Below, one piece after another: positions 2,818 to 56,122 of a stretch of DNA of 64,000 nt. Under the pieces are notes generated by a model. The model was not told the DNA's origin. It made no database searches and was given only the letters and a program-made list of their open reading frames with translations. Every line of letters starts with the position of its first letter. The first letter of the stretch is position 1. Source of the DNA: Candidatus Adlerbacteria bacterium (GTDB lineage Bacteria > Patescibacteriota > Minisyncoccia > Phycocordibacterales > SBAW01); contig JBAXLB010000002.1 in assembly GCA_037135035.1 (NCBI GenBank), positions 4,993-68,992 on the forward strand, in the 5' to 3' direction. Both the position numbers and the translations under genes were made by a program.

Positions 2818-3450
2818 ATGCAACACAATAAATTCAATCCTGAGAGGGCAGAACTCGTGCCTATGGTTATCGAAAAAACGCCATTTGGCGAACGCGCGTT
2901 TGACATTTATTCGCGCTTGCTTAAAGACCGTATTATTTTTCTCGGTGGCCCAATCGAGGACTACACCGCAAACGTCGTTATCGCGCAGTTGCTCTTTTTG
3001 GCATCGGAAGACCCTAAAAAAGACATTCAGCTCTACATCAACTCCCCCGGCGGCTCGGTCACAGCCACACTCGCCATGCTCGACACGATGAACTACATCA
3101 AGCCAGACGTCGCGACTGTCTGCATTGGTATTGCAGCGTCCGGTGCTGCGATAATGCTCGCCGGCGGCACAAAGGGAAAGCGTTTTGCACTGCCCAACGC
3201 CGAAGTGATGATCCACCAGCCATGGGGCGGTGCACAGGGCCAAGCAACTGATATTGAAATTACCGCAAAGCACATTATTGCAACCCGCGACCGCTTGAAC
3301 AAAATCTTGGCAAAGGCCAGCGGCCAGCCGCTTTCAAAAATCGAAAAAGACGTCGAACGTGACTATTTCATGAGCGCAGAAGAAGCCAAAAAATACGGCG
3401 TCATTGACGACATCTTTGGCCACAAAGGTGCGCAAGTAGGCAAAAAATAG
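2818..3450 (+). CDS. clpP: ATP-dependent Clp protease proteolytic subunit
   Basis: 210 aa. ClpP catalytic-triad context is present (GIAASGAA with Ser, MIHQP with His, Asp near the C-terminus). Family-typical FLGGPIED... N-terminus. Confidence 0.93.
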
Positions 3451-5098: not shown

Positions 5099-5116
5099 CT
5101 AATAGAAATAAAAAGA

Positions 5117-5146
5117 AACCGCCTCGGACAACCGGGGCGGTTTTTA
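5117..5146. terminator. intrinsic terminator after rny (CCGCCTCGG-acaa-CCGGGGCGG + TTTTT), bidirectional
   Basis: 9-bp GC stem plus a T5 run directly after the rny stop. It overlaps the stop of the convergent ORF 5144..5467. Confidence 0.8.
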
Positions 5147-5467
5147 CTTAAAAAAACTGCGCTGCCATGGCGATAGACTCGCCAAAAAACGAGCGTATTT
5201 TTGAGACCTTTCATGTGCTTCATTTGAACGCTTACCGTACATATTGAGCTTAAGATCCTCAATACGTTTAATAAGGGATGGCGTAGAATGTTCTTCTGTC
5301 AGAATTATTTCTGAGAAGTGAGTCGACCATCCACTATAGAAAACTAACTTGTGTTTTCCGCGAGAATGATTCGGCGTAATGAGGAATTGGAAGTAGATAG
5401 GTCCTCCAAATTTGTCCGCAAGCAGATCCTCTTTCTTCTTTCTCTTAGAACGTTTTGCCTTTTTCAT
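5144..5467 (-). CDS. small basic hypothetical protein
   Basis: 107 aa. Lys-rich N-terminus. SD GAGGAG 7 nt before the ATG. Its leader is the conserved element E1. Confidence 0.5.
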   Translation of the reverse strand: MKKAKRSKRKKKEDLLADKFGGPIYFQFLITPNHSRGKHKLVFYSGWSTHFSEIILTEEHSTPSLIKRIEDLKLNMYGKRSNEAHERSQKYARFLASLSPWQRSFFK

Positions 5468-5481
5468 TTGAGTCTCCTCTC

Positions 5482-5552
5482 AAAAATCTATCTCGATGAA
5501 TCTTCGAATTTCTTCAAAGACTCAATAGAGAGGAGAAGTTGTAAGCTTCTCC
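5482..5552. repeat. conserved leader element E1 (52-bp conserved block ending CTCAATAGAGAGG plus a 7-bp-stem hairpin)
   Basis: About 90% identical over ~52 bp to 40937..40990 (E3). A diverged copy is at 5809..5860 (E2). Each is followed by a hairpin of different sequence but equal structure. Confidence 0.7.
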
Positions 5553-5564
5553 TACACACATCTC

Positions 5565-5786
5565 CTACTGAGAGGCCCAGTCCAGCACGACCTTTGCTAC
5601 GACGTGCCTCACAACCCTCAACGTCTCGCGACCAACGCGCGGGGTTCGGAGGATCTCCGCTTCGGTCACGACGCGATTCAGGACATCGCCTACCGTCACC
5701 CACCCTTCCCTTTCGATAACTTCGAGTTGATAGCGATGATGATCCGGCCAATAATCACGAAGTTTTTGGTTCATTACATCGCTCAT
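5565..5786 (-). CDS. small hypothetical protein, GC-rich islet
   Basis: 73 aa. SD AGGAGA. High GC. Element E2 is upstream and the E1 hairpin is downstream, where it acts as a terminator-like structure. Confidence 0.5.
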   Translation of the reverse strand: MSDVMNQKLRDYWPDHHRYQLEVIEREGWVTVGDVLNRVVTEAEILRTPRVGRETLRVVRHVVAKVVLDWASQ

Positions 5787-5808
5787 TGAAGTCTCCTGTG
5801 GTTATTTG

Positions 5809-5878
5809 AAAGATCTATTCTCTCTTGAACACCCGACTGTCCAGATTCTCAATAGAGAGGAAGAAATTTCTTTCTTCC
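5809..5878. repeat. conserved leader element E2 (diverged copy plus GGAAGAAA-tttc-TTTCTTCC hairpin)
   Basis: Shares AAAGATCT...TTCTC and the CTCAATAGAGAGG core with E1 and E3. Its hairpin covaries. Confidence 0.6.
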
Positions 5879-5888
5879 CTTAGTGTTT

Positions 5889-6140
5889 TTAGTCGTTATA
5901 CCTCGGGAGCATTTCATTTAGTTCCTCAATGGAGATCACCTGATAGGTAGTTTCCTTCGTCGACGACCCCCCTTCCGACGACTTGTCTTCTTTTTTGGGA
6001 GATAGTGTCCCCAGCACCTTGTTCGCTTCCTCCTGGGAACCATGGAAGGAATGCACTTCCTTCCGGCTCCAGGCATGGAATTTGCCATACGACTTTGAAC
6101 AACCCTTGTTCTCAGTAATAATGATGTACTGAACCTGCAT
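5889..6140 (-). CDS. small hypothetical protein, GC-rich islet
   Basis: 83 aa. Strong SD (AGGAGGG). Own TTGACA-N16-TACTCT promoter-like boxes and two 5'-UTR hairpins. Confidence 0.5.
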   Translation of the reverse strand: MQVQYIIITENKGCSKSYGKFHAWSRKEVHSFHGSQEEANKVLGTLSPKKEDKSSEGGSSTKETTYQVISIEELNEMLPRYND

Positions 6141-6342
6141 GATGCCCTCCTAAGGCTGTAAGGCCGTTGGCCTGTTTTGATGAACTCTGTACTGACAACA
6201 GAGTACCAGATTTGGTAGATTTGTCAATTTAATGGGCTATATAATTAGCTCAAATAGCTTTATTTAAGAACGTATTTTGTACATATTGGTAAAAATCATC
6301 AAAAATATTGACTAAAATGGACATTTAGTATACGCTAGAGAT

Positions 6343-7077
6343 ATGCAGTTAAAAGAAGCGTTGCAAACTATAGGGCTCTCCGAGAAGCAAACCGCTGTCT
6401 ATTTGGCACTGTTGCAGCTTGGCCGCGGCTCGGCATATTCTATTGCTCTCAAAAGCGGGCTCAAAAAACCCACCACCTACGTTATTTTGGACGAGCTGAT
6501 AGAGAAAGGCTTAGTCTCTCGTGTGCCGCGCGTCAAAAAACAGCTCTATGTCCCCCACTCGCCACAAGAGGTCTTTGCCACAGCTGAAGAAAAGTTTGCA
6601 CTAGCAAAAGCAACACTGCCCGAGCTGCTCGCGCTAACCAAAGGCACCGACACAAAAGTAAATACTCTTTACTTTGAAGGTGTCGAGGGTATCAAACAGC
6701 TGATGGAATATCGCGCTAAAGAAATGCACGGCAAAGAGATGGTCGGGTTCTATGCCACGGATGTTAACGCCGACCCAGAGCTAGTGCGATATTTTAAGGA
6801 CGAATGGGCAGACAAAATGTTGAAGTTACATATCCCTGTGCGTATGATAGCTCCCGAACATGCGTCCCTCAAAGACTATCGCGATGCAGACGCAAAATAT
6901 AACAGGCAGCTAAAAACCGTTCCGTATGCAGAGTATTCGTCCGAAGTTGCTATAGACGTGCTTGGCGACATTGTGCGCATACAAGATTATAAAAATTTGC
7001 AGGGAGTTGCGATAGAAAATGCCGACGTTGCAAAAACAGTGCGACAGATTTTTGAATTGGTGTGGAAAAAATTGTAA
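6343..7077 (+). CDS. TrmB-family HTH transcriptional regulator (paralog 2)
   Basis: 244 aa. wHTH LGLSEKQTAVYLALLQLGRGSAYSIALKSGLKKPTTYVILDELIEKGL. Close paralog of 41749..42483. Confidence 0.75.
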   Translation: MQLKEALQTIGLSEKQTAVYLALLQLGRGSAYSIALKSGLKKPTTYVILDELIEKGLVSRVPRVKKQLYVPHSPQEVFATAEEKFALAKATLPELLALTKGTDTKVNTLYFEGVEGIKQLMEYRAKEMHGKEMVGFYATDVNADPELVRYFKDEWADKMLKLHIPVRMIAPEHASLKDYRDADAKYNRQLKTVPYAEYSSEVAIDVLGDIVRIQDYKNLQGVAIENADVAKTVRQIFELVWKKL

Positions 7078-7214: not shown

Positions 7215-7736
7215 ATGGGCAATGAGACTATAAAAATTCATAACGTAGCTTTTATTGACGGACAAAACCTCCATTTAGGCACAAAAGAATGTGGCTGGGT
7301 GATAAATCATAAAAGATTTAGAGTATACCTTTCAGAAAAATATAATATTCAGGAAGCCTATTACTATTTAGGTTTCGTCTCAGACGGAGAGCAGGATCTA
7401 TACGACAAACTCCAAAAAGCCGGTTTTATCCTTTCGTTTAGAGACCATTCAGCTGCGCTTAAGGGAAATAAAAAAGGCAATGTTGACTGCGATATTGTAT
7501 TTGGTGCCATGAAAAAACTAGCAGAAAACGAGCCCTTCGATACAGTTTTTATAGTGTCTGGGGATGGCGATTATAAAAGAATGGTCGACTATTTAGTTAA
7601 AAAAGGAAAGTTCGGCAAAATGTTATTTCCAAACAGGAAGTTCGCCTCTTCTCTATATCACAGCTTAGGAGGAGAATACTTCGACTATCTCGAATCAGCT
7701 GATGTCAAAGCCAAGATAGCCCATACCCATAAATGA
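7215..7736 (+). CDS. NYN-domain (LabA-like, PIN-fold) protein, paralog 1
   Basis: 173 aa. FIDGQNL at the N-terminus and the SGDGDY acidic motif typical of NYN/LabA. Confidence 0.7.
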   Translation: MGNETIKIHNVAFIDGQNLHLGTKECGWVINHKRFRVYLSEKYNIQEAYYYLGFVSDGEQDLYDKLQKAGFILSFRDHSAALKGNKKGNVDCDIVFGAMKKLAENEPFDTVFIVSGDGDYKRMVDYLVKKGKFGKMLFPNRKFASSLYHSLGGEYFDYLESADVKAKIAHTHK

Positions 7737-8096: not shown

Positions 8097-8369
8097 ATGA
8101 ACAAACAAGATATAGCAGAAAAAGTGCACGGAGTCCTTGGCGGAACCAAGGCCGATGCAGAACGTGCCGTTGAAACTATGATAGACACCATCGTTGCCTC
8201 TTTAAAGAAAGGCGAAGATGTTTCTATCGCAGGTTTGGGCATCTTTAAGACAAAAATGCGTGCAGCACGCACCGCCCGCAACCCGCGCACTGGCGCAACC
8301 GTACAGGTTGCCGCAATGACAGTGCCTAAGTTCCAGGCTGCAAAAGCACTCAAAGAAGCAGTAAAATAG
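8097..8369 (+). CDS. hup: DNA-binding protein HU
   Basis: 90 aa. HU/IHF fold signature (GLGIFKTKMRAARTARNPRTGATVQV). Strong terminator downstream. Confidence 0.92.
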   Translation: MNKQDIAEKVHGVLGGTKADAERAVETMIDTIVASLKKGEDVSIAGLGIFKTKMRAARTARNPRTGATVQVAAMTVPKFQAAKALKEAVK

Positions 8370-8519: not shown

Positions 8520-9194
8520 GTGTATCCATACACGCCCCAGCTAGCCGCAAGGTCCGCTGGGGTTGTTCGTGCCCAAATCTGCTACAATAGCGGACACGTG
8601 GAGACAATTTTACTCATAGACGGAGAGAATTTTAAGGGCAAAATCCGCTCTGTGTTCAAAGACACAAAGAAGGACAAACCCGTGTGGCACGAATACGACT
8701 TTAAGGGTCTGCTTGATAAAGTGTTGAAAGATATTCCTCTCGATAGAAAGGTCTTTTACTTTGCTCGTATTAAAGAACACGATGATAGCAAAGAAAAATC
8801 AAAACAGTTAGTTGAGGAGCAACGCCAACTCAAAACCCATCTGGAGAAGCAGGGTTTTGAGGTTATTTTGAGCGGTCGAGTACGTGGGCAAATGGAAGAA
8901 GGTCAAAGCGGAAAAAAGGTACTTGTATTCAAAGAAAAAGGCGTTGATGTAAAAATCGCCGTCGACATGGTGAGCTTGGCGTGCGATAAGAAAGTTAAAG
9001 AAATAATACTTGGGAGCTCCGATTCAGACTTGCAACCCGCTATCAAAGAAGTTCGCGACAGAAAAATAAGCTGCGTATATCTCGGCTTCGAGGCACAGCC
9101 AAATAAAGGTCTTTCGTTTACCACCAGTAGAACCCTTTTAATACGCAACTCGGAGATTTTGGAATTTGAGAAAACACAGCAGACTCTCATTTAA
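8520..9194 (+). CDS. NYN-domain (LabA-like) protein, paralog 2
   Basis: 224-aa ORF. NYN motifs LLIDGENF and GSSDSD. The true start may be the GTG near 8598 (VETILLIDGENF). The stop codon abuts the hup 3'-end duplicate. Confidence 0.65.
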   Translation: MYPYTPQLAARSAGVVRAQICYNSGHVETILLIDGENFKGKIRSVFKDTKKDKPVWHEYDFKGLLDKVLKDIPLDRKVFYFARIKEHDDSKEKSKQLVEEQRQLKTHLEKQGFEVILSGRVRGQMEEGQSGKKVLVFKEKGVDVKIAVDMVSLACDKKVKEIILGSSDSDLQPAIKEVRDRKISCVYLGFEAQPNKGLSFTTSRTLLIRNSEILEFEKTQQTLI

Positions 9195-24396: not shown

Positions 24397-25161
24397 TTAC
24401 TTACTCGAAAGGTTCCAGAGTACTTCAAAAAACCCTTTGTAGCCCTCTGCAACTTTTTTGTTTGTAAAGGTAAAGGCAACAACCGGGTTGCCATAAATCA
24501 TAAAATTGACCTTGTCGCCATAGATGTCAGTATCTACTTCAGGTGCCGACTGGGGGAGGACGCGATATTCGAAAAAAGGTCGTGTTTGAGCCATTATTTT
24601 AAGGTAGTTGGGGTTACCCGACATACTTATGTACCGCAGCCGTATCTTTTTTTCAATACGAATCCGTTCATATTCGTTCAGTTCTCCTCCAAAAATTTCG
24701 ACATATTTGTCCCCGTTGCCTGCCAAAATATCTATAGAGCTGCCGTCGGGCATACCTTCGAGCAGAGCAAACTCGTGGGCAACAAACGCGGTGTCGCCCT
24801 GGAAGACCTCGAAGCTCTGTTCGTGCTTGCCGGCAAACTGCTCTTTTAGCTGGCGCACCACTGCCTGGGCCGAAAGCTTTTTTTCTTCCACAAGCGAAAG
24901 GATGCGCTCGGGCGAGCCAGCGCTAAACTTCTTCCGGCCGTTTTGCACCACGTGTTTTGCAAGCCCCAACTCCTCCAACCGTTCAAGTGCCTGGTACACA
25001 AACTGCCCGTGCAGCCCGCTGGCGCGGATAAGGTTGCTGGTGCCTGTGTCTTGGCGGGGAAGTAAGGCTAAATAGACCCGCGCTTCCTTGTCGGTGAGCC
25101 CTAAAGCCTCCAAATTGCTTAAAAGCTCCTTATTTGCAATATCATCAATATTTTTTGACAT
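24397..25161 (-). CDS. TrmB-family HTH transcriptional regulator (paralog 3)
   Basis: 254 aa. wHTH LGLTDKEARVYLALLPRQDTGTSNLIRASGLHGQFVYQALERLEELGL. Confidence 0.72.
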   Translation of the reverse strand: MSKNIDDIANKELLSNLEALGLTDKEARVYLALLPRQDTGTSNLIRASGLHGQFVYQALERLEELGLAKHVVQNGRKKFSAGSPERILSLVEEKKLSAQAVVRQLKEQFAGKHEQSFEVFQGDTAFVAHEFALLEGMPDGSSIDILAGNGDKYVEIFGGELNEYERIRIEKKIRLRYISMSGNPNYLKIMAQTRPFFEYRVLPQSAPEVDTDIYGDKVNFMIYGNPVVAFTFTNKKVAEGYKGFFEVLWNLSSK

Positions 25162-28995: not shown

Positions 28996-29763
28996 TTACT
29001 TCGCCATGTTCCAGAGCATGTCGAAGAATTTTTTATAATCTTCCGCAACTGCTTTTGATTTGATGATATAGAGGAGTGCCGGGTTTGCAAAGCTGTAGAA
29101 TGTCACCGTGTCAAAACGTACGACGGTAGAAGCAACTGTTTTGGGCAAAGTGTCCAGTACGCGATATTCAAAATGAGAAAGCACTTTCTGTGCCCGTTTC
29201 ATATACGGGACATCCGCTGGAGCAGCGATAAATTTACTCTTGAGGCCTCTACTTTCGGCGATACGAGAATTTTCTTCATATCTCTCTCCAAAAAAGTCCA
29301 TGAACGCTTCGCAGTTACCGCCAATTATGTATTGCGTAAGGTTTTCAGGCAGGCTCTGAACAAAACGCTCCTCAAAATCAAGAATCTGCCGTGTGCCCCG
29401 AAATACTTCAAAGTCCTGTTCAGCACCAATTGCAGAAATGTGCGAAAGCTCGCGAGCAGCATGTTCGGCACTTTCGAGCCGCCGTTTTGCTAGGTGAGTA
29501 ATGTAATGAGGGGGAAGCGCTTTGTACTGGGTGCGTGCTCCGGAGGGAATTTCTTCAATTAATCCGAGCCCGAGCAGTTTTTGGACAGAATTGTGCACAT
29601 ATTGCCGATGAAGTTCCAACCTTCCGGCAATTTTCGACCCGCCAAACGGCTGCCCACGTTCCAGCAAGAAGATATACACCCGCGCATCATTGTCTGTAAG
29701 CCCGAACGGTTCAAGCAGCAATGCCAACTCTGCATTTTTCTCTGTCATATCCATATATGACAT
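28996..29763 (-). CDS. TrmB-family HTH transcriptional regulator (paralog 4)
   Basis: 255 aa. wHTH FGLTDNDARVYIFLLERGQPFGGSKIAGRLELHRQYVHNSVQKLLGLGL. Confidence 0.72.
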   Translation of the reverse strand: MSYMDMTEKNAELALLLEPFGLTDNDARVYIFLLERGQPFGGSKIAGRLELHRQYVHNSVQKLLGLGLIEEIPSGARTQYKALPPHYITHLAKRRLESAEHAARELSHISAIGAEQDFEVFRGTRQILDFEERFVQSLPENLTQYIIGGNCEAFMDFFGERYEENSRIAESRGLKSKFIAAPADVPYMKRAQKVLSHFEYRVLDTLPKTVASTVVRFDTVTFYSFANPALLYIIKSKAVAEDYKKFFDMLWNMAK

Positions 29764-30473: not shown

Positions 30474-31382
30474 TTATTTCCTGCCCGTGCCGTGGAATTT
30501 TTTGTGGACTTCGTGCAGGTGTTTGTCTGTCACGTGGGTGTAGACCTGTGTGGTTGCGATGTTCGCATGACCAAGGAGTGCTTGTACGGAACGCAAGTCG
30601 GCGCCGTTTTGGAGCAGGTCGGTTGCAAAGGAGTGGCGGATAACGTGCGGCGTAACTTTGCGCGTAATGCCCGCTTTTACCGAATATTTTTTAACGAGAC
30701 GTTCTACCGAGCGGGGAGTGAGCCGCAGCTCTTTGGCATTTTTTGAACCTTTGCCCATTTGTATAAAGAGCGCCTCGTCGACATCGCCACGTTTGTCTAA
30801 ATATTCTTTTATCGTGCGCTTGGCGGCAGGGGAGAGAAACACAACACGAATTTTTTCGCCTTTGCCACGGATAGAAAACTCGTCGCGCGTTAAGTCTAGG
30901 TCGCGGTTAAGCGAACATAGTTCCGACACACGCAACCCAGTGGAAAAAAATAATTCTAAAATCGCCCGGTCGCGCAACTCTGCAAGTCCCGAACCTTTCG
31001 GGCCCGCCATCAAACGCTCCAGCTCATCGGACGTAATAAGATCCAAGTCGCGACTACCAACTTTTGCCAGTTCAATGCGCTCTGGATTCAATGACTCTAT
31101 ATCGCGCTTGCGCAAAAACTTTAAAAACGCACGGAGCGAGATCATGTAGTAGTTTTGTGTTTTGTGCTTCATCGTACCCGCAGTACCTGCTTGGCGGTTA
31201 AGATGCAAGCGGAATTCGCGCACGGCGCTTTCGGTCAGCTTAGAAGGGGAGGTTATTTTACTGTGTGCTAAAAAACGCGAAAGGTACCGGTCGTAATTTT
31301 CGACCGTTTTAATACTCCGGCCTTTTTCAATTTCTAAATATTCTAAAAACTGAGTTTTGAGATCTTTCAAATCTGCCTTCAT
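30474..31382 (-). CDS. tyrosine site-specific recombinase XerC/XerD family
   Basis: 302 aa. C-terminal catalytic box HVIRHSFATDLLQNGADLRSVQALLGHANIATTQVYTHV with the R...HxxR...Y layout. N-terminal SAM-like domain. Confidence 0.88.
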   Translation of the reverse strand: MKADLKDLKTQFLEYLEIEKGRSIKTVENYDRYLSRFLAHSKITSPSKLTESAVREFRLHLNRQAGTAGTMKHKTQNYYMISLRAFLKFLRKRDIESLNPERIELAKVGSRDLDLITSDELERLMAGPKGSGLAELRDRAILELFFSTGLRVSELCSLNRDLDLTRDEFSIRGKGEKIRVVFLSPAAKRTIKEYLDKRGDVDEALFIQMGKGSKNAKELRLTPRSVERLVKKYSVKAGITRKVTPHVIRHSFATDLLQNGADLRSVQALLGHANIATTQVYTHVTDKHLHEVHKKFHGTGRK

Positions 31383-35057: not shown

Positions 35058-35705
35058 ATGGCAATCATTAAACACAAAAGCCAGCGCGTCGGCATTTTTA
35101 TAGACACGCAAAACCTCTACCACAGCGCAAAAAACCTTTACAAAGCTAAAGTTAACTTCGGCAACGTCGTTAAGGAAGCCTTGGCCGGCCGCGTACTTGT
35201 ACGCGCAGTAGCGTATGTTATCCGCACCGAAAGCGAAGAAGAAAAAAGTTTTTTTGATGCGTTAAACAAACTCGGAATAGAGACAAAAGTAAAAGATATC
35301 AAGATATTTGCCGGCGGTGCTAAAAAGGCCGACTGGGACATGGGCATGGCTATCGACGCTATTGCGATGGCCGAAAAGCTCGACACTATTGTCCTGGGTA
35401 CCGGCGACGGCGACTTTGTCCCGCTGGTGGAATATCTACGTTACGCCCGCGGCTGCCAGGTGGAAGTTATTTCCTTCGGCAAGTCGTCTTCGGGCCAGTT
35501 GCGCGAGGTAACCGACGACTTTATCGACATGTGCGACAACCCACGCAATTATCTTATTAACTACAAGGGAGGTGGGGGAGGTCGCGGATTTTCAATCCCT
35601 GGCTTTGGCGGAGGAGCCAAACATGCACCTACACCTGTCGAAGACGAAGGAGTCGATGTCGGCCAAGAGGTCTACGACGACAGCGACATAGACGAAGATA
35701 AATAA
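35058..35705 (+). CDS. NYN-domain (LabA-like) protein, paralog 3, with C-terminal Gly-rich/acidic tail
   Basis: 215 aa. IFIDTQNLYHS and GTGDGDF motifs. Tail NYKGGGGGRGFSIPGFGGG...DDSDIDEDK. Confidence 0.7.
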   Translation: MAIIKHKSQRVGIFIDTQNLYHSAKNLYKAKVNFGNVVKEALAGRVLVRAVAYVIRTESEEEKSFFDALNKLGIETKVKDIKIFAGGAKKADWDMGMAIDAIAMAEKLDTIVLGTGDGDFVPLVEYLRYARGCQVEVISFGKSSSGQLREVTDDFIDMCDNPRNYLINYKGGGGGRGFSIPGFGGGAKHAPTPVEDEGVDVGQEVYDDSDIDEDK

Positions 35706-40471: not shown

Positions 40472-40504
40472 AAGCGCCCAGTATTTCTACTGAGCGCTTT
40501 TTCG
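40472..40504 (+). terminator. intrinsic terminator after the dksA-like gene
   Basis: AGCGCCCAGTA-tttc-TACTGAGCGCT followed by TTTTT. Confidence 0.75.
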
Positions 40505-40659
40505 TTCTCCTCCTCTAAGTTTTGATTTTGCGGAGTTTGTACACGGGCACAATTTCGTACCCGAGCTCCTTCAGGGACCGCTCGATCTGGGACTTGGCGC
40601 GATGCCACGATCTCCAGTAAATGAGCGCCTCGGAATAACCGGGGCGGTTTTTGGATTTT

Positions 40660-40902
40660 TCAGTCGAGCAACAAATCCCGCATCTTGCGAACAGGTTTGT
40701 TCCTCTCGAGGATGTGCGTGCCCGGATTCTTTTTCATCCTGTCGAAGATCCGCCGACACGCGGAGATGACGCTTTTGCCCCCGCGAGGCACGTTCTTCTT
40801 CAATTCTTCGAGAAGCCTTTCGGCTTTCTCTGGATCCTCCCAGCTCCACGCTGCTGCGAGGAAATCAACCGCAATCGCGTACATCTTATCGTCAAGCTTC
40901 AT
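40660..40902 (-). CDS. small hypothetical protein in a GC-rich island
   Basis: 80 aa from the ATG at 40902 (SD GGGAGA). Element E3 lies ~45 nt upstream. A second open frame continues downstream without a start, which may be a frameshifted remnant. Confidence 0.45.
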   Translation of the reverse strand: MKLDDKMYAIAVDFLAAAWSWEDPEKAERLLEELKKNVPRGGKSVISACRRIFDRMKKNPGTHILERNKPVRKMRDLLLD

Positions 40903-40936
40903 GACTTTCTCCCGTGCCTTGTGAGGCGTCTGTTTT

Positions 40937-41010
40937 AAAAGATCTCTTCTCGATGAACCTTCGAATTTCTTCAAAGACTCAATAGAGAGGGTGAATGTGT
41001 AGATTCACCC
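40937..41010. repeat. conserved leader element E3 (copy of E1) plus GGGTGAAT-gtgtag-ATTCACCC hairpin. Two further hairpins follow at 41026..41049 and 41053..41068
   Basis: About 90% identity to 5482..5533 over 52 bp. The hairpin sequence is different but structurally equivalent. Confidence 0.7.
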
Positions 41011-41167
41011 CAATGCCTTAAGTTCGATAGAGAAGGGCTTTTCTCTATCTATCGAGACGCCACTCTCGAGGTTGTAGCGTTAGATAGTTGTTGGACTTAT
41101 AACCCCTAATTTAAAAGGATACGCCTTCTGTTGCCAAGCGGGAATCACCCCGCTCCGATCTATGCGA

Positions 41168-41521
41168 CTATGCGGGCAGGCCCGTCACTTCAACCAATCG
41201 GCGGTGGAAGGGGAAGAGCTTGCTTTCGCACCTCGGACAGCTAACCAAGCCGGGGAACTCCTTTTTGAAGTTCTCACCGTCAGGGAGACTAACCGAGCCC
41301 AGGAACGAGCCGCGGGCATTTTTGATGAACTTCACGTACATCAAGTTGCCATCGTACTCGCTGCTGACGCAACGCAACCAGGTGGTTTCCCTGTTTTCGC
41401 ACGCATCGTTCATGCATGCAAACAGATACCTAGTTTCCCAGAGACGGCCTTCGCCGCCCGGGATGCGCACGTCATACTGGTAGTCGTAAGACTCGGTAGC
41501 GTAGTTGTAACAGTCGCGCAT
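41168..41521 (-). CDS. hypothetical Cys-rich (zinc-ribbon-like) protein in a GC-rich island
   Basis: 117 aa from the ATG at 41521 (SD CAGGAGAG). CxxC (CPRC) plus scattered Cys/His. High GC. Confidence 0.45.
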   Translation of the reverse strand: MRDCYNYATESYDYQYDVRIPGGEGRLWETRYLFACMNDACENRETTWLRCVSSEYDGNLMYVKFIKNARGSFLGSVSLPDGENFKKEFPGLVSCPRCESKLFPFHRRLVEVTGLPA

Positions 41522-41748
41522 GATGCTCTCCTGTGCCCCTCGGGGCTGATGGTTTGGCAATATTGCCCTTGTTGTGATGATCGTCTACCCAACAGTATAG
41601 GTCATTTTGGGCAGATTGTCAATCTTTATGATTTAATTTATAGTTCGTGTGTATATAAAAAGCTTTATTTATCAACATATTTTGGAGATTTAGCTTCGTT
41701 TATCAAAATTGTTGACTAAATATGTGTTTTGCCCTATACTAGCTAGGT

Positions 41749-42483
41749 ATGAATTACACCGAAGCACTTGGAACTTTGGGGCTGAGCGAAAAGCAGGCGA
41801 GCGTATATTTAGCCTTGGTTGGGCTAGGGGAGTCGTCTGCCTACGCTATTGCCCACAAAGCAGGCCTAAAAACTCCTACTACCTACGTTATTTTGAAGGA
41901 GTTAATCGAGTTAAACATCGTCTACACTATCCCTCGGGCCAAAAAGCAGCTGTTTGTTTCCATGGACCCCAAGCAACTCTTTGCTAAAGCACAGACACGC
42001 TTTGAAGACGCAAAAAGTTTACTGCCGTCTATACTCGCACTTGTTGCTGTGCCTGGAGTGGCACCAGTAACACGCTCGTTCTCGGGGAAGGCTCAACTGT
42101 TGAGTGCATACTTTGAAACACTCGCCGTACCGGACACCACGCTGCGCGGCTGGCTTTCGGAAGGTGCGTGGTCGGAACACGGGCTCGATTTCTTTTTAAA
42201 CACCTACCGGCCGCAGCGCATCAAACAAAACATCTCCAACCAGTTTATTGTCGGCGACACTGCTGTGATGCGCGACTATGCCCAACACGATGCAGGGGTG
42301 CTTAAAGAAACTCGCGTGGACAAAAACTTCGGGCCACAGACCGACCTCCTTATATATGGTGGCAATAAAATAATCATCGCTTCGTTTTATGAAGAAATGG
42401 GAGTTATTGTCGAAAGCCAAAAAGTGCACGACTTACTCGCAGGGATATTCGAGGCGCATTGGGCCGCACTCGAGGGCAAATAA
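41749..42483 (+). CDS. TrmB-family HTH transcriptional regulator (paralog 5)
   Basis: 244 aa. wHTH LGLSEKQASVYLALVGLGESSAYAIAHKAGLKTPTTYVILKELIELNI. Closest paralog is 6343..7077. Confidence 0.75.
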   Translation: MNYTEALGTLGLSEKQASVYLALVGLGESSAYAIAHKAGLKTPTTYVILKELIELNIVYTIPRAKKQLFVSMDPKQLFAKAQTRFEDAKSLLPSILALVAVPGVAPVTRSFSGKAQLLSAYFETLAVPDTTLRGWLSEGAWSEHGLDFFLNTYRPQRIKQNISNQFIVGDTAVMRDYAQHDAGVLKETRVDKNFGPQTDLLIYGGNKIIIASFYEEMGVIVESQKVHDLLAGIFEAHWAALEGK

Positions 42484-54366: not shown

Positions 54367-54957
54367 ATGGAAGAAAAAACAATACAGGAAAAAATTAAAG
54401 AGAGGTTGGCAGAGCTACCGCAAGATGTGCAAGACGCGGTACTTTCAGCAGACATGGGCACACACATCCACTCTATTGGGCAAAAGCACGGCCTCCACAT
54501 AGACCAAATAGGGAAGCTGGAGGATGAAACAATGCTTGTAATGCTTGGTTTTTTTGACGCAGATACATTTAACCAACAAATACAAGACCAACTTGCAATA
54601 CCAGCCGAAGATGCTGCCGCAATAGCAGGGGAGGTGAGCGACACTGTCTTTGCACCTATACGTGAGTCGTTAAAAAACTTTGTAACTAACAAGGCCACCC
54701 CAGAAAAAGTAGAACAAAATTCGGCCTTGCCTGCAGTACAAATAGCCCCACTTCCTGCTGTCACAGCACTTTCAGCTCCAGCGGTCGCTTCTGTACCTGC
54801 AATTTCTATGCCGGTAGCTGAAAAAATGCTTACAGAAAAAACAGTAGTGGTAGCTCCAACTATGCCAGCACCTGCCCTAGTGCAAAATACCCCTGCCCAG
54901 CCAACAACACCGCGGCCCATATACAAAACTGACCCCTACCGCGAGCCAATTGAGTAA
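54367..54957 (+). CDS. hypothetical protein in the T4SS block
   Basis: 196 aa. Acidic N-terminal half, Ala/Pro/Val-rich C-terminus. Confidence 0.45.
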   Translation: MEEKTIQEKIKERLAELPQDVQDAVLSADMGTHIHSIGQKHGLHIDQIGKLEDETMLVMLGFFDADTFNQQIQDQLAIPAEDAAAIAGEVSDTVFAPIRESLKNFVTNKATPEKVEQNSALPAVQIAPLPAVTALSAPAVASVPAISMPVAEKMLTEKTVVVAPTMPAPALVQNTPAQPTTPRPIYKTDPYREPIE

Positions 54958-54991
54958 AGCCCTATACAAAACTGATATATACTAATGAGGA

Positions 54992-55423
54992 ATGCGCTAT
55001 CAAGTTCCTCAATTTATCGAAGTTGAAGATAAAATATTCGGCCCCCTTACGCTGAAGCAGTTTATCTATTTGGCCGGTGGGGCAGGCTTGTGTCTTATAT
55101 TTTTTAGCTTGTTGCCGCTCTACATAACTATTACTCTTTCACTGCCAGTCGCTGGTTTTTCCTTTGCGCTTGCGTTTTATGAAGTTAACGGCCGCCCGTT
55201 TTTAAACTCTATTGAACATGCCTTTGGGTATTTTGTCGGCAGCAAACTCTATTTGTGGAAGCAACGTTTGCCTTCCGCTGGGGAAGGACAGGTTGTAACG
55301 CCAGCAAGCGCTCCTTCTACAACAATTACCGTACCCAAACTTTCTGACAGTCGCCTTAAAGACCTTGCGTGGTCGCTAAATATTAAGGAACGCGCCGCCC
55401 TTACCGATATAAAGAACATCTAA
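54992..55423 (+). CDS. PrgI/TcpE-family (VirB3-like) small membrane protein
   Basis: 143 aa. QFIEVEDKIFGPLTLKQFIYLAGG followed by two TM helices. Directly precedes the VirB4 ORFs. Confidence 0.55.
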   Translation: MRYQVPQFIEVEDKIFGPLTLKQFIYLAGGAGLCLIFFSLLPLYITITLSLPVAGFSFALAFYEVNGRPFLNSIEHAFGYFVGSKLYLWKQRLPSAGEGQVVTPASAPSTTITVPKLSDSRLKDLAWSLNIKERAALTDIKNI

Positions 55424-55424
55424 T

Positions 55425-56093
55425 ATGGCTGACAACGCGACAAAAGCACAGGCAACACAGGAATTTGTACCCATACAAGAGGTACGTGGCGGTATTATTA
55501 TTTTAAAAGACGGCTCTATGCGGTCGATGCTTATGGCGTCGTCTATTAACCTGGCCCTAAAGTCGCAAGACGAGCAGGCGGCGATAATTGGGCAATTTCA
55601 AAACTTCCTTAACTCACTCGAGTTTAGTGCACAATTTTTTATCCAGTCGCGAGACTTAGACATCCGCCCCTACATTGGGTTGTTGGAAGCTCGTTACACC
55701 GCCGAGCTAGACGATTTGATGAAAATACAAATAAAAGAATACATTGCCTTCATTAAAGACTTTACCGCACGCTCCAACATCATGACAAAAAACTTTTTTA
55801 TCGTGGTGCCGTACGACCCCGCACTTGTTGCCCGCGGCAGCGGTGTTACAGGAATTGTAAATGCGCTGATACCTTCAAAAAGTACCGGCGGGGGAGGAGT
55901 ACTTACCGACGAGCAGTTTGAAGAGTACCGCGTACAGCTTGAGCAACGCGTATCGGTTATAGAACAAGGTTTAATACGCACCGGTGTGCGTGTGGTGGGC
56001 TTGGGGACAGAAGAAATTATCGAACTGTTTTACAAACTCTTTAACCCGGGCGAACTTGAAAAACCGCTGCAAGTAACACAAGTTGCAAAGTGA
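55425..56093 (+). CDS. VirB4-family ATPase, N-terminal CagE/TrbE/VirB domain fragment
   Basis: 222 aa. FVPIQEVRGGIIILKDGSMRSMLMASSINLALKSQDEQ matches the VirB4 N-terminal consensus. The start is 2 nt after the PrgI-like stop. Confidence 0.55.
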   Translation: MADNATKAQATQEFVPIQEVRGGIIILKDGSMRSMLMASSINLALKSQDEQAAIIGQFQNFLNSLEFSAQFFIQSRDLDIRPYIGLLEARYTAELDDLMKIQIKEYIAFIKDFTARSNIMTKNFFIVVPYDPALVARGSGVTGIVNALIPSKSTGGGGVLTDEQFEEYRVQLEQRVSVIEQGLIRTGVRVVGLGTEEIIELFYKLFNPGELEKPLQVTQVAK

Positions 56094-56122
56094 TACTATA
56101 AAGAAGCTTCGTACACCTTTTT

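Follow-up and report, generated by a model that had tools for sequence, protein, structure and literature searches.

A structured RNA element at the gene junctions of variable small-gene arrays from the Candidate Phyla Radiation

A 64-kb stretch of the genome of a Candidatus Adlerbacteria bacterium (hereafter, the window) contains three copies of a short intercistronic element, E1 (5482-5552), E2 (5809-5878) and E3 (about 40934-41010), which accompany small genes on the minus strand. The element is a genuine and previously undescribed structured RNA family, and neither a chance repeat nor a local duplication. Our analysis firmly shows that it is an RNA-level, sense-strand, structured module that is tied to variable gene arrays. 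It most likely controls the read-through or processing of the operon transcript, rather than acting as a terminator fused to a promoter. We class it among the cis-acting elements of transcripts, whether of the nut/boxA type or as a processing site, with a marker of cassette shuffling as a minority possibility. Our preferred but tentative interpretation, to which we assign a probability of about 0.4, is a Nus-factor site of the nut or rrn type that is repeated at gene junctions.

To our knowledge, almost nothing is known about gene regulation in the uncultivated bacteria of the Candidate Phyla Radiation (CPR, or Patescibacteria). The element provides a well-supported new structured RNA motif from this radiation, with 34 copies and strong covariation, and is tied to an unusual setting of small, rapidly changing operons of genes with hardly any relatives, each located beside a gene for a protein that resembles the archaeal chromatin protein TrmBL2. 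If the boxA reading is true, Nus-factor antitermination or regulation extends from rRNA and CRISPR arrays to accessory protein-coding arrays, in which it is modular at the junctions. If a recombination reading is true, the element belongs to a new cassette-shuffling system. Either way, the motif is a search handle for these variable loci in metagenomes.

Architecture, covariation and distribution

On the gene-sense (minus) strand, each element consists of a first hairpin (H1) and a second hairpin (H2), which are followed in most copies by a single-stranded tail. H1 is variable in sequence and is predicted in 34 of 34 copies, with a median energy of -14.4 kcal/mol. Its 5' end is nearly always GGAG or GGG, its 3' end is CUCC or CCC, and its 3' arm finishes 0-1 nt before H2. 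H2 follows the pattern (UCUC)UAU(UGAG + covarying stem-loop + CUCA)UC(GAGA). The lower boxes of H2, UCUC/GAGA and UGAG/CUCA around a UAU/UC internal loop, are sequence-invariant to a degree that exceeds the need of base pairing, and the upper stem covaries freely. The tail, G(U/A)UCUUUnAA (type AGAUCUUUCAA), lies 2-5 nt after H2 and about 10-30 nt before the next Shine-Dalgarno sequence.

The three window copies display this architecture on the minus strand. In E1, H1 (5532..5552) reads GGAGAAG-CUUACAA-CUUCUCC, and its 3' arm ends directly at H2 (5491..5531), which reads (UCUC)UAU(UGAGUCUUUGAA-GAAA-UUCGAAGAUUCA)UC(GAGA). The E1 tail (5477..5490), UAGAUUUUUGAGAG, is degenerate boxA-like and is followed by the Shine-Dalgarno sequence GGAGA (5472-5476) and the start codon ATG (5465-5467). 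E2 is a diverged copy, with H1 (GGAAGAAA-GAAA-UUUCUUCC) at 5859..5878, an H2 of the E1 architecture with compensatory inner-stem changes (AUCUGG-ACAG-UCGGGU) at 5819..5858, and a tail (AUAGAUCUUUCAAAU) at 5804..5818 that contains the boxA-like sequence GAUCUUUCAA at 5806-5815. E3 is composed of H1 (GGGUGAAU-CUACAC-AUUCACCC) at 40989..41010, an H2 almost identical to that of E1 at 40948..40988, and a tail at 40934..40947 with the boxA-like sequence GAUCUUUUAA at 40935-40944. E1 and E3 share 98% identity over 43 nt and 92.6% over 54 nt, and E2 shares 73% identity with E3 over 63 nt. The 13-mer CTCAATAGAGAGG occurs at 5521, 5848 and 40978, which gives three matches in the window compared with 0.02 expected; none of 100 shuffles reached three. 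The positions of E1-E3, their three flanking hairpins and the minus-strand order of stop codon, hairpin, UCUCUAUUGAG, about 50 nt, Shine-Dalgarno sequence and ATG all agree with an earlier sequence-only reading of this DNA.

That reading had also argued for selection on structure, and the enlarged set of copies bears this out, given the strong covariation of H2 and the presence of a hairpin at the first position in every copy. In a 34-copy alignment, 94.7% of 544 cells form standard pairs in H2, and both sides change compensatorily in 11 of 16 pairs (82 cells), although these figures are somewhat inflated because the alignment was fitted to a covariance model. None of 500 shuffles reached such a level of pairing and covariation, and sliding the partner columns reduced pairing to 27-57%. 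An independent MAFFT/RNAalifold run recovered the same H2 helix. Even the "invariant" boxes change compensatorily in diverged copies, as exemplified by UCGG/UCGA in another array (L118). Likewise, H1 variants that differ by compensatory substitutions reappear in different genomes behind unrelated genes. The alignment contains 55 G-U pairs but only 7 A-C mismatches, which indicates that the folding strand is the mRNA-sense strand. The predicted fold of E1 is -35.7 kcal/mol (z -3.4) on the minus strand and -26.6 kcal/mol on the plus strand, and all copies are sense-oriented relative to the flanking small open reading frames (ORFs).

E3 and several other copies exist in a long form with an upstream extension that opens with a module, GGAGCGGGCUGAUAUCCCGCUUGGCAACAGAAG, and continues with a variable hairpin and then AAAACUAUC. 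The module is near-invariant, 33 nt long, and forms a hairpin with the 7-nt loop CUGAUAU, similar to the anticodon arm of tRNA-Ile(GAU); it has no Rfam match. It is found directly past stop codons, upstream of some H1-H2 elements and once ahead of a terminator (window 41125-41156 on the minus strand; L107 75-95 and 623-643; L118 2424-2444; L127 3612-3632; L139 2739-2759). In the window, the extension spans 41011..41167 on the minus strand, and the module, here GGAGCGGGGUGAUUCCCGCUUGGCAACAGAAG, begins 11 nt past the stop codon of ORF 41168..41521 and is followed by two more hairpins. Two such extra hairpins upstream of E3-type elements (UCGAGA..UCUCGA and GAUAGAGAA..UUCUCUAUC) share words with the ends of H2 and H1, and occur at window 41011-41110 on the minus strand, L141 60-135 and L064 5205-5300. 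They have the appearance of scars left where an element was partly duplicated or deleted.

Several other structural candidates were dismissed by eye: a kink-turn (K-turn), a hammerhead core (the sequence is CUGAUAU rather than CUGANGA), a loop-tail pseudoknot (the loops are not conserved) and pairing of the tail with the H1 5' arm (inconsistent across H1 types).

Known families do not account for the element. At the gathering score, Rfam reported only tRNAs in the window and 10 related loci, and at E<=10 it returned nothing relevant over E1, E2 or E3. The sequence-only reading could not match the element to an attC site, an insertion sequence end, a CRISPR repeat or a known riboswitch, and the analysis agrees that it is none of these. 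A literature search found no earlier description of such elements in Patescibacteria.

The element is distributed well beyond the window. A first scan with a pattern of 13-mer, gap and GAGA, using one genome per species, was too permissive, with about 110 chance matches among 119 loci; true arrays were told apart by several copies or by hairpins. Multi-copy arrays were found in a Candidatus Adlerbacteria bin (L064), in loci with Paceibacterota and Patescibacteria labels (L088 and L118), and in three loci labelled Bdellovibrionales (L049, L054 and L107). A stricter pattern yielded nine true metagenome loci, eight of them distinct (L130 duplicates L127), and 5 of 14 metagenome matches (L122, L123, L126, L132 and L133) were discarded for lack of hairpins. 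A covariance model built from 21 copies then collected 34 copies in 20 loci, which come from bins of Adlerbacteria, Paceibacterota and Patescibacteria and from metagenomes. The sequence-only reading had allowed for a recent local duplication in the event that the element was confined to three places; this does not hold because copies exist in other genomes and metagenomes. In the 64-kb window, the model found no further copy beyond E1-E3; a weak match at 15206-15251 lies inside a coding region and was rejected as chance. The three loci from "uncultured Bdellovibrionales" bins hold typical arrays and TrmBL2-like genes that strongly match those of CPR bacteria (jackhmmer E 1e-66 to 1e-82). Either these labels are wrong or the system is present outside Patescibacteria.

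Transcription units and the position of the element

Array 1 of the window contains three genes and two elements, and the L064 array contains four genes and three elements. This n-1 relationship indicates that the elements are located only between genes there. H1 begins shortly past the upstream stop codon in most copies, with the stop codon inside H1 in L141, and the distance from the end of H2 to the next start codon has a median of 31 nt. In L088, an element resides in the 5' leader directly behind the promoter with no upstream ORF, which indicates that the element serves the downstream sequence. In L138, a copy precedes an uncalled ORF of about 76 aa. Some junctions (L140 and L136) or whole arrays at the loci of relatives are free of the element. 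The start-to-start spacing of copies within arrays is irregular (268-1124 nt), and the intervals hold genes. A CRISPR repeat, a repetitive extragenic palindrome or bacterial interspersed mosaic element (REP-BIME) and a miniature inverted-repeat transposable element (MITE) were rejected on the grounds of this spacing, the genes with Shine-Dalgarno sequences in the intervals and the restriction of copies to arrays beside TrmB-like genes.

Each element had been interpreted in the sequence-only reading as a terminator for the upstream cassette fused to the promoter of the next one, in the manner of an autonomous phage moron. H1 is indeed a stable hairpin that is followed by a moderately U-rich UCUCUAUU, and TTGAG(T/A) resembles a -35 hexamer. 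However, the proposed hexamers sit in the covarying H2 stem, no conserved -10 follows TTGAGN, and candidate -10 positions vary with the stem. We therefore reject the promoter half. The terminator half is poorly supported, and H1 is at best a weak terminator because UCUCUAUU rather than a U-run follows it, while the arrays themselves end in canonical terminators. Consensus scans detected no minus-strand sigma-70-like promoter or terminator-like site inside E1-E3.

Genuine promoters and terminators are located elsewhere in canonical form. Array promoters are near-consensus (TTGACA-17-TATACT/CATAAT) and adjoin the TrmB-like gene. The array 1 promoter and 5' leader (6141..6227, minus strand) comprise TTGACA at 6222-6227, a spacer of about 16 nt, TACTCT and the leader motif GUUCAUCAAAAC at 6174-6185, and are conserved in orthologous loci. 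The array 2 promoter (41594..41622, minus strand), TTGACA-17-TATACT, matches 11 of 12 consensus positions. Arrays finish in a canonical hairpin plus U-run, as observed in L139 and at window 5116..5146, where one bidirectional terminator serves array 1 as well as the convergent RNase Y gene. This arrangement of canonical signals elsewhere and none in E1-E3 argues against a terminator-promoter fusion, which we disfavour as highly improbable. The leader motif, GTTCATCRAAAC, resembles the 3' half of H2 more than boxA. It is not enriched in the window (15 matches compared with 11.5 expected) and is therefore no general 5'-untranslated-region signal.

A 27-nt copy (92.6% identity) of the array 1/RNase Y terminator hairpin (5120-5145) is found at 40626-40652, just past the last array 2 gene. 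The surrounding stretch, 40500-40660, looks like decayed coding sequence, as if it were a remnant of an earlier array.

The boxA-like tail and the function of the element

What does such a module do at a gene junction? We favour a nut- or rrn-like site because the tail resembles boxA, its conserved positions correspond to NusB-NusE contacts, and boxA acts outside rRNA operons. The tail motif G(U/A)UCUUU is exact in 20 of the 29 copies collected first and reaches 25 of 29 with near variants. The boxA consensus GYTCTTTAANA, which is gamma-proteobacterial (PMC5725501) and may not be that of the host, is matched at eight or more of 10 positions by 62% of the 34 copies, compared with 2.0-2.5% of shuffled or random controls. 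At nine or more of 10 positions, this gamma-proteobacterial consensus is matched by 21% of the copies and by less than 0.6% of the controls. The conserved tail positions are G2, U4, C5, U6, U7 and U8, and in boxA the positions G2, C5, U6 and U8 are contacted by NusB or NusE (PMC3177189). Outside rRNA operons, boxA occurs upstream of CRISPR arrays, where it guards against Rho, and regulates suhB (PMC7665894, PMC5725501). Furthermore, H2 places a boxB-type hairpin beside the motif in most copies, and NusA is encoded in a related genome (L139). In rrn leaders, the order is likewise hairpin and then boxA.

We infer Nus-factor binding, antitermination and a role of H1-H2 as a protein-binding platform. 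On our reading, the modules are transcribed within polycistronic mRNAs whose one sigma-70-type promoter and the TrmBL2-like gene are arranged back to back. NusB-S10 would bind the boxA-like tail as RNA polymerase leaves each gene junction, and the invariant H1-H2 junction and internal loop would bind an additional factor. In consequence, the elongation complex would retain or regain resistance to termination, both by Rho and at the downstream weak hairpins of H1 plus UCUCUAUU, such that the distal, often exchanged and foreign-looking genes could be expressed whatever lies upstream. Alternatively, a boxA close to the ribosome binding site might repress translation, as at Escherichia coli suhB.

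The element shares with known Nus-factor sites (the rrn leader boxB-boxA(-boxC), lambda nut and the CRISPR and suhB boxA sites) a hairpin that is followed by a single-stranded motif of the G-Y-U-C-U-U-U-A-A type, and with the suhB site a motif less than 50 nt from the start codon. Such sites keep long or foreign transcription units from premature termination (PMC7665894, PMC5725501, PMC3177189). Unlike nut and rrn sites, the element is repeated at many junctions rather than placed once near the promoter, and it has a second abutting hairpin and an invariant 13-nt junction that are absent from any nut or rrn site. Tail position 3 is U or A, whereas the boxA consensus has C or U, and NusB-S10 binding is predicted only. 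The two adjacent stem-loops with almost no linker are reminiscent of the put RNAs of phage HK022 on nascent RNA, although the two do not resemble each other in sequence. A put RNA works in cis on the polymerase that transcribes it, is present once in an operon and does not depend on boxA.

A number of observations weigh against a Nus-factor site. Nine of the 29 first copies deviate from the core motif, four of them have no motif at all (L064c, L088, L124-246 and L128-887), and E1 itself reads GAUUUUU. The boxA match is to the gamma-proteobacterial consensus only, as 16S/23S signatures revealed no rRNA gene in the window or in 141 loci (~1.06 Mb). In most arrays the leader motif, GUUCAUCGAAAC, departs from boxA at position 6, which is critical, and looks closer to the 3' half of H2. 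Neither NusB nor Rho was detected in the available sequence, and annotation covered only part of the window. A processive complex should not need reloading at each junction. Moreover, Nus factors do not account for the strict invariance of CCUCUCUAUUGAG.

The main rival to a Nus-factor site is an RNA processing or stability signal, which we consider less probable, though a serious contender. RNase III, acting on the irregular H2 helix, or an enzyme of the RNase Y/E type, acting on the A/U-rich tail, would cut the mRNA at each junction. The upstream fragment would end in a protective H1-H2 and the downstream fragment would start just before the Shine-Dalgarno sequence, which would give each gene its own half-life. 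RNase III sites lie between the early genes of phage T7, and these hairpins are also irregular, have an internal loop, occur between the cistrons of one mRNA and would leave the upstream message with a 3' hairpin. The element fits such a scheme with its intercistronic irregular hairpin, its asymmetric internal loop flanked by invariant base pairs, the U/A-rich single-stranded segment directly behind the hairpins, the one promoter and one terminator per array, and the RNase Y and PNPase encoded in the window. However, the lower stem of H2 is just 4 bp, and the second abutting hairpin and the conserved single-stranded motif after it set the element apart from the T7 sites. A generic cleavage site would not require the conserved G-(U/A)-U-C-U-U-U, and the L088 copy in a 5' leader has no upstream gene to stabilize. 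This scheme draws on structural likeness, and cleavage at the element is putative.

The positions of H1 relative to stop codons and Shine-Dalgarno sequences bear on translational control or coupling. In that scheme, the Shine-Dalgarno-like GGAG of H1, which is opposite CUCC, would together with the pyrimidine run CUUCUCCUCUCU alternately hide and free the next Shine-Dalgarno sequence, with the switch set by ribosomes that terminate at the upstream stop codon just before or inside H1. The nearly constant GGAG/GGG start and CUCC/CCC end of H1, the upstream stop codon shortly before H1 (inside it in L141) and the distance of about 30 nt or less to the next Shine-Dalgarno sequence are as expected. 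However, we found no conserved alternative pairing that involves the next Shine-Dalgarno sequence, H2 and the tail are left unexplained, and the L088 element has no upstream ORF, which makes this mechanism decidedly unlikely.

Gene turnover, TrmBL2-like neighbours and other window features

The array genes are real, given their Shine-Dalgarno sequences, Pfam domains in two of them and a ratio of nonsynonymous to synonymous substitution rates (dN/dS) of 0.25 in one. In the window, the minus-strand ORFs 5889..6140, 5565..5786 and 5144..5467 of array 1 had been identified from sequence, and an independent assembly of the same organism has the same three genes called. Gene 1 (5889..6140, 83 aa) has no relative among 5.8 billion proteins. 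Gene 2 (5565..5786, 73 aa) has one homolog with 68% identity, from which the above dN/dS value derives and which is also element-flanked in L141. Gene 3 (5144..5467, 107 aa) has only five remote relatives among 1.84 billion representative proteins. Array 2 consists of gene 1 (41168..41521, 117 aa counted from ATG) and gene 2 (40660..40902, 80 aa) on the minus strand. The small genes have no Pfam or NCBIfam assignment, save a weak match of 5565..5786 to the RNA polymerase alpha C-terminal domain. A stand-alone domain of this type is encoded by the L088 array gene (E 4.6e-10), and a stand-alone receiver domain by the L118/L120 array gene (E 7e-9). Both upstream genes of array 1 had been described as GC-richer than the backbone and gene 3 as AT-rich. 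Relative to the window mean of 47.7%, this is true of 5565..5786 (55.0%, about equal to the neighbouring RNase Y gene with 52.4%) and of the AT-rich 5144..5467 (39.8%), but 5889..6140 equals the backbone (47.6%).

The arrays exhibit extensive gene turnover. Hardly any two array genes are related, and the orthologous locus ClpP-RNase Y-[array]-TrmB-like-HU contains different genes in every relative examined. This swapping of unrelated small genes agrees with the cassette-like character that the sequence-only reading had attributed to the units. One H2 variant precedes four unrelated genes (at E1, E3, L064a and L139). L141 is a mosaic of the two window arrays: the E3 region recurs (80%) in its first element and the sequence ahead of it, E2 and ORF 5565..5786 recur (72%) in its second element and gene, and an unrelated gene lies between them. 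In the closest relative (L135), whose TrmB-like protein is 91% identical, a ParE-family toxin gene (2889-3140) is located on the opposite strand beside element-containing small genes. In L140 (431-4732), the orthologs of the two array-associated TrmB-like genes, which are 35 kb apart in the window, lie within 4 kb of each other, with a third TrmB-like paralog and a five-gene array between them. This indicates rearrangement around these loci.

Such variability raises the possibility that the element is a DNA-level recombination site with integron-like cassettes, exchanged at the repeat with its invariant 13-nt junction by some site-specific recombinase or by homologous recombination between repeats, and that its RNA structure is secondary. 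In addition to the variable locus, the near absence of relatives of array genes, both within the arrays and elsewhere, the shared H2 variant and the L141 mosaic, the scar-like partial elements upstream of E3 are consistent with exchange. Integron cassette arrays, including Vibrio cholerae repeats (VCRs) and clusters of attC sites lacking integron integrases (CALINs), similarly comprise promoterless, co-oriented and mostly unrelated small genes separated by repeats whose ends and structure are conserved and whose middle is variable, and their gene content differs between close relatives. The element itself, however, differs from attC. It has two hairpins instead of one, and neither strand of E1-E3 contains the R''/R' motifs (RYYYAAC and GTTRRRY). 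Its folding strand is the mRNA-sense strand, whereas in attC it is the bottom strand that folds. No element follows the last gene of the window and L064 arrays, and many junctions (L140 and L136) are devoid of one. In the loci for which genes were listed, no integron integrase (IntI) was detected, and viral contigs contained no match to the element pattern. The sole tyrosine recombinase of the window (30474-31382, on the minus strand) is XerD/XerC/XerA-like and is encoded about 10 kb from one array and 24 kb from the other. It passes the archaeal XerA cut-off (236 bits compared with 220), but on the integron-integrase model TIGR02249 it reaches 130 bits, short of the cut-off of 265. Thus, a recombination site is a distinctly unlikely identity for the element.

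An elaborated version, which we rate as improbable, is a CPR-specific integron-like cassette system. The ~60-nt H1-H2 repeat with its junction CC|UCUCUAUUGAG would allow small genes that have no known relatives to be captured and shuffled between arrays and genomes, through some recombinase or guided by the repeats after natural transformation. The TrmBL2-like protein would control expression, and the RNA fold would make it cassette-autonomous.

The arrays are accompanied by TrmB-family genes. A gene of this family (244-260 aa) is divergent from the array in 10 of 11 loci of the first set with enough flank and in four loci of relatives with a copy of the element (L135, L138, L139 and L140). 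In the window, the TrmBL2-like winged-helix protein 6343..7077 (plus strand, 244 aa) is encoded divergently from array 1, and its paralog 41749..42483 (plus strand, 244 aa, 35% identical) divergently from array 2. Five such paralogs exist in the 64 kb, the other three at 851-1606, 24397-25161 and 28996-29763 on the minus strand, and element-containing arrays adjoin only two of the five. An AlphaFold model of the TrmBL2-like protein (predicted local distance difference test score, 86.8) is a full-length fold match to TrmBL2 (E 1.5e-14), with a winged helix, a long helix, a PLD-like C-terminal domain and a similar length of about 250 aa. TrmBL2 itself coats DNA, acts as a global repressor and binds DNA in both double-stranded and single-stranded form (PMC3031468, PMC4877046). 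Unlike TrmBL2 of Thermococcales, the window protein has a bacterial (CPR) host, shares 16-20% sequence identity with it and is one of many paralogs per genome, each by a variable array.

Given this neighbourhood, the element might serve as an operator whose invariant DNA words TCTCTATTGAG and CTCATCGAGA are bound by the adjacent TrmBL2-like protein at every junction, as Cbp1 binds CRISPR repeats, so that array transcription is shaped by the protein. The divergent TrmBL2-like genes, the fold match, the DNA binding of TrmBL2 itself and the box invariance beyond the need of pairing would suit such a role. In contrast, a duplex DNA operator would be expected to show neither covariation in the stem that separates the boxes nor the 55:7 preponderance of G-U over A-C. 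The conserved sequence of the shared promoter, TTAGTCAATATTTTTGATGA, is unrelated to the element, and TrmBL2-like paralogs are simply very frequent, as their number in the window illustrates. An operator is therefore very improbable.

At about 54367-57946 on the plus strand, past several large proteins without domain assignment, the window also encodes a cluster of PrgI, a TraC-like protein and a TraG/VirB4-like P-loop ATPase, which are parts of a type IV secretion or conjugation-like apparatus. Two HU-family genes share a 63-nt stretch with 95% identity (8280-8342 and 9194-9256), which points to a duplication of recent date or to gene conversion. The window further holds genes for at least three NYN-domain proteins (7215-7736, about 8520-9194 and 35058-35705), the first two of which flank the first HU gene.

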